Shown one piece after another: positions 25,672 through 34,397 of a stretch of 64,000 bases of DNA. Origin of the DNA: Dictyostelium discoideum (lineage: Eukaryota); the NCBI GenBank assembly GCA_000004695.1, contig CM000151.3, positions 352,001 to 416,000 on the forward strand. Reading direction: 5' to 3'. The notes under the pieces are model-generated. The model was not told the DNA's origin. It made no database searches and saw nothing but the letters and a program-made list of their open reading frames with translations. The position numbers and the translations under genes are program-made. Every line of letters starts with the position of its first letter. Position 1 is the stretch's first letter.

Positions 25672-28080
25672 GGTTTTTTTTTTTTTTTTGATATAAATAA
25701 ACTATTGTAGTATAAAATTAGTATGTTATTTTTATTTATTTATTTTAGGTTTTTTAGTTTTTGTGAATTTAAAATGGTATGTTATTTTAGATTAGGTAAT
25801 TAATAATTAATTGGTGGTGTAATTGTTGGAATTGGTTCATTTGTGTTTATGCTCCATTCTTTTTTAAATTTTTTGATGGTTTCGGACCATTGGGTTTCTT
25901 TTTGAGTTTTTATGAGGTTGTTTTTAATTGAGTATTGGTTAAAGTTTGATAATGTTCTTGAATATTCCAATCTTATTAGCTTGTGCCATTTTGATTTTAA
26001 TATATCATAATCTAGTGTTGTGTTGTTTATTTGGTTGTTCCAATTATCAATTGATTGAGTTATATTGATGTCAAATAATGATTTGAATAACCATATCCAT
26101 ATTTGGTGAATAACTAATGAGATTATGTTCCAATATGCATGTGTTCTGACTAGATCAAGATTTGTGTTTATATAATTCCAGTTGAACCTGTATTTTTTAT
26201 ATTGTGCGTTTTCTGCAAAATGAAAATTAATATTGATAGTTGGATCTGGTTTAAATGCTTTGTTGTTTGTTTGTGGTTTATAAATGAGTGTGTATAATTT
26301 TGTTGTTTGGTTTTTTGTTAGTGACCAGTTTTTGTTTCCATTGCAATTTTTATATATAAAATATTTTAATTTGTCGTGGTTTATGAAGTAGATTGTGTGC
26401 TGACAATTGAAAAACAAATGACCATAGGGATCATTATTCATTTCATTGTTGCAAATGGGGCAAACTTTGTTGAGTAGATGATTAATCGGAAGACATCTAG
26501 CATGGAATCTTTGCATTGTATCACGGCCTTTTGGATCTTTTAGCTTTTGAATTTTGACAAATAGTTGGTCGTATGTGTATTTCCATAATAGTTGTATTGA
26601 TTGTTGGTGCGAAGTAAGAAGTAGATCTGAATATTTCTTTCCAATATAGTCTTTTGATTTACATTGATGATTGTTGAGTATTGTCGAGTAGATTTCTTTG
26701 AGTGTTGGTGGTAGTGAAATATTATTTGTTGTTAATGTTTGAGAGGTTTGGTTTTTTATTAATATTGGTTAAAGGGTTTGAACTTTATCTTTTAGATGTC
26801 CAATTTGAGTTGCATAGTTTTCCCATTCTTTTTTTATTTTTATAAGGTATGGAGAAGAGATTGATTTGTTAATAATTTGATCCATCCAACTTATCATGTA
26901 TATTGAATTGTTTGCAGATTTATGCATTTGTAAAAATCTGTTGTATATCCAAATCTTTTGAGCAACTTGTCGTAATTGTATATTCCACATACCCCAACCA
27001 CCTTCTTTTAATGGTTTTAATGATCTATCATAACACATCAAAGGTATTTTTGCACGTGAATGGATGGTTGATGTGTTATTTTCAATGGAATTGGTATTGA
27101 GAGTTGGTGATTCAGAATTTGCGGGAGAATTCATAAACCATGAGATTAATTTATTAATTTGAATTTCTTCATCTTTTGTAAATTCTTCAAGGTATGATAA
27201 ATATGTTATTGGTGATAGTGAGTAGGTGTTTATGATGGTTGTTTTTGTTTTTAATGTTGTGCCACTAGTTTTCCATAGTACTAATGATTTGATCAGTGTT
27301 TTCATTGTTTCTGGTAATTTCCTATGTAAACCATTATGATTAAAGAAATAGCCAATGAACTCTTTCTGATTGATCTTTTTTGGTTATTGGAATTCTTTTT
27401 GATTGTGGAATGTTGTTTATTATGTGTTTATCAGTGATTTTGTGGTGGTTGATTTCTATTATTGCACTTTTGTCAAAATTTAATGATGATGATGTTGAAG
27501 CGCAGAAATTATTTGAAATGTTTGATTGATTGTTGTTGTTGTTCGTAGGTGATGTTGTATGTTGTAGAGTCGTCTGCAAATTGGGTAAATTTAATTTTAA
27601 TTTGTGGTAATCCAATTATTGTATTGTCTGCATTTATTGTTCTTGCTAATATTTCAATTACAATTACAAATAGAGTGGCTGAGATTGGGTCACCTTGTTT
27701 TACACCTCTTTTAATATCGAATTTTCTGGTCGTTTTACCATTAATTGAAATTTTTGCTTGTGGAGTCAGATAATAGCTTGTGGATTAAATTTATTAATTT
27801 TATTGGTATACCAATATGAATTAATGTTCTTTTAATACTATCGTGAGAGATAGAATCAAATGCTTTGAAGAAGTCAAATAGTGTGATGATACCAGGGAGG
27901 TTTTTAGATTTGAGGTAGTTGATTAATTCATTGATGTTGATGATGTTGTCTATGATGAATCTGTGGGGTACGAAACCAGTTTGGTTGATGTTGATGATCT
28001 GACTACAGTGAGAATTGGTTTAACTTGGTTTAAATGATTAATGTAGAATGCATTTGTAACGTGCATTCTACATAAACATA
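25672..28080 (-). mobile_element. 5'-truncated TRE3-type non-LTR retrotransposon (copy 2)
   Basis: Minus-strand ORFs 25800..26516 (CCHC: FHARCLPINHLLNKVCPICNNEMNNDPYGHLFFNC) and 26769..27305 are colinear with the C-terminal part of copy-1 ORF2. An RT fragment lies at 27330..28020. A T17 run at 25672-25688 is its likely poly(A) tail (plus-strand poly(T)). Confidence 0.6.
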
Positions 28081-28084
28081 AGAA

Positions 28085-28735
28085 AAGATGGATATTATCA
28101 CCTGGTACTGCAAATGACCATGAAGCAATCAATATTATCAATCATTTAATAACTAATCACAATAACACATCAATCAATCAATTCCCAAACTGGTCAAAAG
28201 TAAAATCAAAAATTATTAAAACTCTAAAAAACTATCAATATAACAAAGACAAACAAACTCAACGTGCAAAACAAATACTATTAGAAAAAGCAGCAAAATT
28301 CAAACATCTTGAAGAACAATGCATCGCTGAATACAACATTATATGTAACAAAAACAAATTACATCAAAACCACACAAACATATTAAAAAACATATAAATG
28401 GAGAAATACCTAGCAAGTATCTATCAGCAATACTAAACAAAAGATCAAAAGATGCAAAAATTGCATCAATCTAATATGGTAACATCATTACATCCGACCC
28501 CGACCAAATTGAAAATGCGTTTGTTGAATTCTACACAAATCTATATAGCTTACAAATATGTTGTCCAATTACTCACCAGCTCATGCTAAACACATGGCCC
28601 ATCATAAAAAATGAATATTGGAATGGTTTAGACTCACCATTTATACAAGATGAAGTTGAAGCTGCAATTAAAACCTGTAACCCCAACAAATCACCCGATA
28701 CAGTTGAAATCTCCTGCGATAATAGATACATGTTG
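28085..28735 (+). mobile_element. inverted TRE3 ORF2 fragment (EN-RT linker region), frameshifted
   Basis: The plus-strand translation ...IENAFVEFYTNLYSLQ...NEYWNGLDSPFIQDEVEAAIKTCNPNKSPDTVEIS matches copy-1 ORF2 ...IEEEYVKYYSNLYDYKEDDPLSHYEMLENW...EILEVIKQLNPHKSPGPDGIP. The junction with the minus-strand RT fragment carries a 10-bp hairpin (gtagaatgca/tgcattctac, 28046-28074). Confidence 0.5.
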
Positions 28736-28739
28736 GGAT

Positions 28740-32873: not shown

Positions 32874-34116
32874 TATGAGATGATATCGATCTCCTCTTGG
32901 GAGTCGTATAGCTGCGGTTTGGATGGTGAAGGGTAGATACTCTCTATGAAGCTCTCAATGATTCCTTTCCTTTCTTTATTGACAGGTGTCTTAGGGGTGG
33001 ATGGGATGTAAGGGTTGCTTCTGTTTATTGTTGGTGAGAGTTGGGTGACCTCGTTGTTTGAGTGGATTTCCTCGTTCTTGCGTTTATGTGATGGAGGGAT
33101 GTTTGGTGTCTTCTCTCTGTTTTCCGAGGATGAATGGATGTTAGTGCTCGTTTTGTTGGTATTGTCTTTTTGGATGGCGTTGGATGTTGTGGTAGTGGTT
33201 GTGGTGGGTTTGACAGATTGAGATTCTGCTTGGTTTTTGGGGGGAAGAGGTTGAGAGGACTTTTTTGATTGGGCTTTTTTCTCTTGGGTTGATTGTTTAT
33301 CAGACTGATTGTTTGCTGGGTCATTTGTTTGTTGTTGTGGTTTTGGTTGAGAGGATTTGATTGCTATCCTGTTTTGGGTGTTGGGAGGATCATCTGTCAT
33401 CTCATCTTCTAATGGTTCTTCCGTGTTGTTTGACTCTACTTTCTTATTTTTCTTTTGTGAGGAGTAGGTTTTGGTGGCCGTTCTGATGGTAAAGTTGGCG
33501 ATTTCTGTATTGTGTTGGCCAGATTTCATTTGATCGCCTATTTTGCATTCTATTAGACCGAATACTAGGAGGTGGTAGGTGGAGTATGTAGTATGGTATA
33601 TTGCATAGGGTATTTCTTCTGCAAAGGCAGTTTTGATGAGGGCGTCCACTATTCCTGCCTTTTCTTTTGGAATTCTTACTCTTCCTGTGAGGACGTGGTA
33701 GTCTCTACTGGAGGTGATGAAAGTTCCCAATTTGCTTCTATCTCTAATGATATTTAGGAGAGATTGTCGTTTTTAATCATCAGGTGTATCATTTTTCTAG
33801 TTCCTTTGCCTATGTATATCTTGTCGATTGGGATATCGTAGTTTGAGAGTGTTTTTCTCATTTCTTCTAACCCCATGAGATCCATTTTGGGGAATTCGAG
33901 TGTAATTGGGTAGAATCCGTTGTTTTTCTCGTAGGTTGAGAGCGCAGTCATGTTCAATATGGTCTCGCAGTATTTGGAGATGTCTTTGAGGCCTATTGAT
34001 AATTTGGGGTAGGTCTCCTTTATCTCTGCTGTTTTTGTGGAGAATTCCTTAATGAAGTTCTCTGATGCCTCGTCCATATGGGGGGCCATTTTAGCCGCGT
34101 CTGCGTAGGAATTCAT
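32873..34116 (-). CDS. TRE3 ORF1 (two frames: 33754..34116 and 32873..33730)
   Basis: ATG at 34116 starts MNSYADAAKMAPHMDEASENFIKEF... There is a frame change near 33730-33754, after which the basic, Thr/Gln/Pro-rich ORF1 continues to 32873. Confidence 0.55.
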
Positions 34117-34365
34117 CTCGATGGGATTCCTTTGAATCGGCGATTTGGTAAGTTAGATCTGTAGATCGTGGTGGATTGGTGATTTTTTTTGAAAGATTGG
34201 TTAAAATTGACCGAGATTAAGGATAGAAAAGGATGAATTACTTTTCACGTGTATCTTGTATCCTCTTGATCGCGGTACGGTTTTTTTTTCTCTTTTTATT
34301 GAAGTAACATTTTTCACGTGTATCTTGTATCCTCTTGATCGCGGTACGGTTTTTTTTTTAAGTTT

Positions 34366-34397
<32 letters not shown>

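Follow-up and report, generated by a model that had tools for sequence, protein, structure and literature searches.

The TRE3 elements of Dictyostelium discoideum (TRE3-A to TRE3-D) are retrotransposons of the non-long-terminal-repeat (non-LTR) type. They have two open reading frames (ORFs), of which ORF2 encodes an endonuclease (EN) and a reverse transcriptase (RT), along with a zinc finger, and they end in a poly(A) tail. Insertion takes place 40-150 bp downstream of a tRNA gene and in the same orientation (PMC5911963), often just beyond the external B box (PMC5911963; PMC5006619), and successive elements pile up at one tRNA gene. The same organization, placement and pile-up can be observed at the locus described here, positions 25,672 to 34,397 of a 64,000-nucleotide stretch of the D. 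discoideum genome (assembly GCA_000004695.1, contig CM000151.3, positions 352,001 to 416,000 of the forward strand). This whole stretch will be called the window, and positions refer to it unless a reference locus is named. Two TRE3 elements, copy 1 and copy 2, integrated here successively downstream of a tRNA-Val gene and in tRNA orientation. Unlike the 12 other TRE3 copies that were sampled (0/12), both carry an internal inversion with an adjoining deletion. Strand-switching, or snap-back, repair synthesis on duplex DNA is the probable cause of both lesions.

Several other described systems come close to what is seen here. Twin priming (5' inversion), as it occurs in human L1, fuses an upstream block that has been inverted to a 3' part in sense orientation, with breakpoints only a few bp apart, as in both TRE3 copies. 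However, a further sense segment lies upstream of the block at this locus, so that the inversion is internal and not terminal, and sequence has also been lost between that segment and the block. Polymerase-theta end joining and switching of the fork stalling and template switching/microhomology-mediated break-induced replication (FoSTeS/MMBIR) type leave inverted copies of adjacent sequence at junctions (here 12 nt and 29-31 nt), switch-point microhomology (here 2 nt and 9 nt) and small untemplated fillers, with several switches close together (here within 2.3 kb). In contrast to these systems, most internal junctions of the two copies have little microhomology. The tract of 29-31 nt is also longer than the ~8-15 nt of the polymerase-theta snap-back tracts described in one paper (PMC4912351). 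Finally, 5'-truncated long interspersed nuclear elements (LINEs) can be attached by microhomology-mediated 5'-end joining, and the 5' end of copy 2 is likewise joined through 9 shared nt. Here, however, snap-back copying of the flank would have produced the target-derived strand itself and with it a palindrome, and no target-site duplication was found for copy 2.

Structure of the two elements

Reverse transcriptases of D. discoideum are the best protein matches to the ORFs between 25.6 and 34.4 kb. The initial annotation of the window described a nested and rearranged TRE3 cluster, in which two copies were separated by an inverted ORF2 piece and an EN fragment. Rearrangement could be confirmed, as alignment to DNA copies at other loci (L001 for copy 1, L005 for copy 2) reveals inversions and deletions in both copies. 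Nesting could not. Copy 2 was compared with the full ORF2 of its family (P0071, DDB_G0291958, 1275 amino acids (aa)) and with the DNA copy L005 (the locus of P0073). The EN fragment, the inverted piece and the supposed copy 2 turned out to be consecutive parts of one reference element (L005 4345-4665, ~4907-5533 inverted, and 5545 to the end), with 97-98% identity for all pieces. The "nested cluster" of four fragments thus really consists of two elements (Table 1).

Copy 2 is 5'-truncated, as annotated, and owing to this truncation lacks ORF1. The part at 25674-28060 is merely a portion of an element that reaches 29017. The plus-strand ORF2 piece and the minus-strand EN piece are indeed present between the two annotated copies, but their bounds had to be moved to 28072-28696 and 28697-29017. 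At the breakpoint between block B and segment C1, 11 nt (L005 5534-5544) are absent, and ORF2 in segment C2 contains several frameshifts and one stop. A 10-nt microhomology suggested by the BLAST coordinates at the junction of segment A and block B was rejected as an over-extended alignment; the true overlap is 1 nt. Since the DNA identity to copy 1 is only ~68%, copy 2 belongs to a different subfamily, as had been suspected. This subfamily is likewise multicopy, and copy 2 shares 96-98% aa identity with ORF2 of the DDB_G0291958 type. Its 3' untranslated region (UTR) is not the shorter one (110 nt versus 102 nt in copy 1), although the two sequences do differ.

For copy 1, the canonical full-length copy at another locus (L001 4040-9305) served as reference. 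Copy 1 is 98.4% identical to this multicopy element, whose ORF2 cluster has 79 members. It is a full-length minus-strand element, as was annotated, but it spans 29020-34289 instead of 29021-34368, and an extra 49-nt 5' piece extends to 34359. In the canonical copy, frame 0 holds ORF1 and frame 2 holds ORF2 (-1 with respect to ORF1); copy 1 has the same layout. The EN-RT ORF of the earlier description is present (858 aa, 30297-32873) and contains RVT_1 and a weak Exo_endo_phos match in Pfam. A Cys/His motif (CPLC...H...C) was found in the aligned C-terminal parts of both copies. ORF2 is inactivated; the lesion is, however, not a stop or frameshift just before the CCHC domain but a 124-bp inversion, accompanied by the deletion of canonical positions 8047-8079 (33 bp). 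The plus-strand translation of the inverted block is LKVGGWNIWNIELRQLAQKLWIINQFILALETKQTNSSHH, a stretch of canonical ORF2. A few bp (3-9; 8195/8198 to 8200/8203) are kept on both sides of the inversion, and its junctions contain 1-5 nt of filler. The loss of 1 nt at 33768 puts ORF1 out of frame, and position 29550 in segment C has a nonsense change that occurs in the window assembly only. The tail, first given as T50, comprises 71-72 T in the window (29019-29090) and ~40 in another assembly. The 14-nt near-repeat ACCAAACAA(A)CAAA that flanks the copy 1 junction was considered as the cause of the inversion and rejected, because the canonical element already has it as a direct repeat, which cannot explain an inversion.

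A second assembly (GCA_054883475.1, loci L003 and L004) covers window positions 24763-50473. It is 100% identical to the window over 24763-29058, which includes all of copy 2, the hairpin discussed below and the inverted block. Copy 1 differs between the assemblies by 13 substitutions and 0 indels, and homopolymer lengths and the tRNA flank differ as well, but every junction is identical. It is scarcely credible that the cluster arose by nested independent insertions or is an assembly chimera, an artefact for which the initial annotation had allowed. Repeats are difficult to assemble, and the two assemblies do disagree over the tRNA flank and the length of poly(T). The internal pieces of copy 2 (segment A and block B), however, have no poly(A) tail or target-site duplication of their own, and they are consecutive in element coordinates, which excludes nested insertion. 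Likewise, a chimera is unlikely because two assemblies that differ elsewhere have the same junctions.

The 13 substitutions in copy 1 cluster in two patches, at 29441-29550 and 32682-33239. The first patch holds five transitions that only the window has (on the element sense strand, G>A four times and C>T once), one of which makes a stop codon. The two-patch pattern suggests gene conversion between repeat copies or mixed repeat reads.

The hairpin at the strand switch

In copy 2 a perfect hairpin with a 9-nt loop lies exactly where the sequence switches strand between block B and segment C. The initial annotation had recognized an inverted repeat at this switch; its stem is 12 bp, not 10 bp, and stands 3-5 nt further to the left. 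The DNA fold has an energy of -11.4 kcal/mol (z = -5.8). Among dinucleotide shuffles of the region, 15% contain a perfect short-loop hairpin of 10 bp or more, and such a hairpin alone is a weak signal. The hairpin observed here is 12 bp long and is located precisely on a junction that was defined independently by homology.

The origin of the two arms is distinct. The left arm and the loop are normal element sequence, namely the VTNAFY codons with which segment C begins. In the right arm, element positions 10-21 of segment C recur in inverted form, and this arm enters block B via a 2-nt overlap. None of the reference copies of the family has it, and it repeats a T>C variant that is private to copy 2. 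From these two properties, it was concluded that the arm is a snap-back templated insertion. The earlier suggestion of a template-switching relic, which would have failed for a hairpin shared by the consensus element, is thereby upheld: the arm copies adjacent sequence including the private variant.

Comparison with other TRE3 copies

The survey of 12 other TRE3 copies comprised four of TRE3-A type (L001, L008, L009), seven of the family of copy 2 (L005, L006, L007, L010, L011) and one of a third family (L002). Instead of inversions, these copies show deletions, secondary insertions and one direct internal duplication. The difference between 2/2 inversions here and 0/12 elsewhere corresponds to p ~0.01 (Fisher's exact test by hand), a value that is overstated because the locus was chosen for one of its inversions.

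Both inversions could in principle have been inherited from transcribed source elements that were already rearranged. Defective non-LTR copies can be mobilised in trans, and copy 1 is whole in other respects and has a poly(A) tail as well as an 11-bp target-site duplication. However, neither inversion occurs in the other TRE3-A copies (0/4) or in the other copies of the second subfamily (0/7), and the snap-back arm of the hairpin carries the private variant of copy 2. Such inheritance is very unlikely.

Other rearrangements were noted among the surveyed copies. A 1.1-kb insertion at L006 6200-7329 is flanked by a 12-nt duplication of element sequence, a 1.5-kb insertion at L009 9702-11244 splits a TRE3-A copy, and the direct internal duplication at L010 8976-9082 measures 107 nt.

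Order of insertion at the tRNA gene

ARAGORN found a single tRNA gene in the window, tRNA-Val(AAC), to which the elements were drawn as their target. Copy 1 and copy 2 both lie downstream of it on the minus strand, like the gene itself, with their 5' ends facing the tRNA. Their position and orientation agree with the published TRE3 rule: the original junction of copy 2 was ~48 bp from the tRNA end, and copy 1 begins ~52 bp from it in the window and ~77 bp in L004 of the second assembly.

The order of the two insertions can be read from the 11-mer AGCAACTTAAA. It occurs exactly twice in L004, directly before the 5' end of copy 1 and directly after its poly(A) tail, and is thus the target-site duplication of copy 1. 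It consists of 2 nt of the flank followed by the first 9 nt of the truncated copy 2, which places the insertion of copy 1 at the 5' junction of copy 2. Copy 2 therefore arrived first, ~48 bp past the tRNA. Copy 1 inserted second, exactly at the 5' junction of copy 2, and duplicated 11 bp.

In the second assembly the flank reads tRNA-AATACTTTTTAAGTTGCTGGGACCTAGACGCAGGAT-CGACTCTGTAGT-ATCCTGCGTCTAGGTCCCAGCAACTTAAA and forms a perfect palindrome with arms of 26-31 nt (fold -39 kcal/mol, z = -13.7). The last 9 nt of the distal arm (CAACTTAAA) are the first 9 nt of copy 2. As AGCAACTTAAA flanks copy 1, the palindrome that holds these 9 nt is older than copy 1. The proximal arm and loop contain the B-box-like GGATCGACTCT. 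Because other loci have the external B box at the corresponding position (GGTTCGAAACC in L008, GGTTCGATTCT in L007), the proximal arm was taken as native. If so, the distal arm would be a snap-back copy, 29-31 nt in length, of the target flank, and the truncated copy 2 would have been joined to it via a 9-nt microhomology once the target had served for snap-back synthesis. This snap-back was probably made during the integration of copy 2.

At the corresponding site the window has a run of T (T31, 34367-34397), where the other assembly (L003 6950-6997) has the 47-nt GC-rich centre of the palindrome. This disagreement may reflect a strain difference, a deletion of the palindrome or an assembly error. 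The GC-rich centre was also considered as sequencing adapter or other contaminant. It is not known to match any sequencing adapter and is unique with respect to the window and the fetched loci, and by comparison with L007 and L008 it was read as native flank with a B-box-like motif.

Origin of the inversions

In both copies a sense segment A, an inverted block B and a sense segment C follow one another within a single element. Element sequence has been lost where A meets the low end of B, 33 bp in copy 1 and ~240 bp in copy 2. C, on the other hand, starts almost exactly where B has its high end, with an overlap of 3-9 bp in copy 1 and a loss of 11 bp in copy 2. The junctions of the two copies show microhomology of 0-2 nt and fillers of 1-11 nt. 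A single nested pair of large inversions was rejected on paper, as it predicts the wrong neighbours for the inverted blocks.

In twin priming of the L1 type (PMC4245944), no more than a small deletion or duplication lies between the breakpoints, and both copies resemble it in this respect. For this locus, the inverted block and the 3' part of each copy would then be one twin-primed insertion within an older copy of the same family. Twin priming, however, puts the inverted block against the target flank (PMC4245944), and in neither copy does the block abut target DNA or a target-site duplication. It adjoins a sense segment of the same element instead, and in element coordinates this segment stops just 33 bp (copy 1) or ~240 bp (copy 2) upstream. 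The remainder of the supposed older copy is missing on the far side of the poly(A) tails. As 5' inversions have, moreover, been reported almost only for human L1, twin priming appears highly improbable.

Strand switching during repair synthesis would proceed differently. A DNA polymerase would switch strands on the duplex, either at a stalled or broken fork or while two breaks are joined. It would jump ahead onto the opposite strand, copy backward and subsequently return near its landing point. The stretch between the departure point and the end of the backward copy would be skipped, leaving the deletion beside block B. Since duplex DNA offers both strands, such switching would account directly for the A|inv(B)|C topology. 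Short-range template switching, or alternative end joining of the polymerase-theta type, would be expected to leave such footprints, and the internal inversions may have been made at integration or later. Polymerase theta is known to carry out snap-back synthesis (PMC4912351), and D. discoideum possesses PolQ (DDB_G0277749) as well as ligase III (PMC8529158). Microhomology amounts to 9 nt at the 5' junction of copy 2, 2 nt at the junction of the hairpin with block B and 0-2 nt at the other junctions. No template was found, within 600 nt or in the whole window, for the copy 2 filler CTGACTAC, the copy 1 junction filler GTCATAG/CATAG or the 21-nt 5' filler of copy 1.

Alternatively, the reverse transcriptase of the element itself may have switched templates during target-primed reverse transcription, so that each integration yielded its own inversion, deletion and fillers. 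The snap-back and the 9-nt microhomology at the 5' junction of copy 2 probably date from its integration, which is in agreement with this explanation. The extra 49-nt 5' copy and the 21-nt filler of copy 1, absent in the other full-length copies that were looked at (L001, L008), are typical of template jumping at the 5' end of the RNA. Internal deletions are also common in other copies, one of which has a direct internal duplication. A sense-strand block B in first-strand cDNA, however, needs an antisense template for a region that the cDNA has yet to copy, and a second cDNA or an antisense RNA must be invoked. Together with the absence of inversions from the 12 other copies, this makes template switching by the reverse transcriptase an unlikely source of the inversions.

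Repair synthesis with strand switching on duplex DNA remains the favoured cause, but several points weigh against it. The four internal inversion junctions have almost no microhomology (0-2 nt), and a template could be traced for only one internal filler. The palindrome at the flank is present in only one of the two assemblies, the window having T31 instead. Two inversions of the same topology lie side by side, with 0/12 elsewhere, which is a coincidence barring a local cause, and none was identified. Lastly, the subfamily names, TRE3-A for copy 1 and probably TRE3-B for copy 2, are provisional.

A broader reading is quite doubtful: TRE3 integration, or fork stalling at the tRNA gene, might occasionally be resolved by snap-back strand switching and so produce an undescribed class of internal inversion-plus-deletion that is distinct from twin priming. 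If true, polymerase-theta-like joining of a retrotransposition intermediate would have left its natural footprints at this amoebozoan locus. A transcript reading through it would also contain 124 nt and 625 nt of antisense TRE3 and could feed RNA interference against active copies.

Both elements are dead, and the locus has no evident function. Known element families occupy a known niche here, and the changes are ordinary transposon decay; no new biological system is involved. The locus is of modest interest, which lies in mechanism. In the annotation, an apparent point lesion of ORF2 is in fact an inversion, a kind of lesion that is missed by frame-based readers and gene callers; the gene callers used on the second assembly split both elements into several hypothetical proteins. 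The junctions preserve base-level footprints of how a 5'-truncated TRE3 became attached to its target and how dead copies are scrambled (flank sequence copied by snap-back, microhomology of 9 nt and a templated insert that forms the hairpin). In Dictyostelium they offer a small lead for studies of alternative end joining and of how LINE 5' ends are joined.

Table 1. Features of the tRNA-Val locus and its two TRE3 elements, in window coordinates
Feature	Position	Strand	Reference or basis
tRNA-Val(AAC) gene	34412-34486	-	ARAGORN
tRNA 3' flank	34360-34411	-	Remnant inverted repeat 34355-34364 / 34402-34411 around T31 (34367-34397)
Copy 1, extra partial copy (49 nt) of TRE3-A 5' end	34311-34359	-	46-nt gap in canonical copy
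Copy 1, 21-nt filler between partial and complete 5' ends	34290-34310	-	
Copy 1, segment A: 5'UTR, ORF1, EN-RT part of ORF2	30305-34289	-	Window 34289 to 30303 = L001 4053-8046, 98.4% identity; Pfam; indels
Copy 1, inverted segment (124 bp)	30181-30304	+	Reverse complement of L001 8080-8203 (window 30304 to 30181 = L001 8203 to 8080), 99.2% identity
Copy 1, segment C: C-terminal zinc-finger part of ORF2 and 102-nt 3'UTR	29091-30178	-	L001 alignment (window 30178 to 29065 = L001 8195-9308)
Copy 1, poly(A) tail	29020-29090	-	
Copy 1, 11-bp target-site duplication, downstream copy (AGCAACTTAAA)	29009-29019	-	Twice in L004
Copy 2, segment A, endonuclease part	28697-29017	-	P0071 aa 58-164 = L005 4345-4665, 98.4% nt identity
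Copy 2, inverted block B (625 bp)	28072-28696	+	P0071 aa 246-453, L005 ~4907-5533
Copy 2, 11-nt filler between block B and segment C1	28061-28071		–
Copy 2, perfect hairpin (12 bp, 9-nt loop), arms ATGTAGAATGCA / TGCATTCTACAT	28041-28052 / 28062-28073		Right arm and 28061 = filler between block B and segment C
Copy 2, segment C1	28007-28060	-	L005 5545-5598
Copy 2, 8-nt filler at 192-bp internal deletion	27999-28006	-	Deletion of L005 5599-5790
Copy 2, segment C2: RT core to zinc-finger domain and 110-nt 3'UTR	25690-27998	-	L005 5791-8124
Copy 2, poly(A) tail (16 nt)	25674-25689	-	

Neighbouring features

An LTR retrotransposon lies at 34515-37154 on the minus strand, 28 bp upstream of the 5' end of tRNA-Val. 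It has two identical 268-bp LTRs with TG...CA ends and a 4-bp duplication, CCGT. Its single ORF of 642 aa contains only an aspartyl protease domain and an integrase C-terminal SH3-like domain, which identifies it as an internally deleted DGLT-A-like element. A similar ORF of 636 aa is found in L009.

The tRNA gene and the transposon cluster sit between two members of a tandem gene family. The proteins of this family are ~1000-1050 aa long and have no convincing Pfam domain, and its copies share 74-90% nt identity. Members are located at 37413-40448, at 41193-44354 and at further sites up to ~54 kb, and also at 1-700, 3448-3851 and 6066-6822. A conserved intergenic stretch of ~120 nt (e.g. 25545-25666) recurs at least seven times. 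Just left of the copy 2 poly(A) lie two paralogous short ORFs, at 24889-25284 (131 aa) and 23472-23858 (128 aa). Both begin with MGTDYIQLNEENSS and are probably the first exons of duplicated genes.

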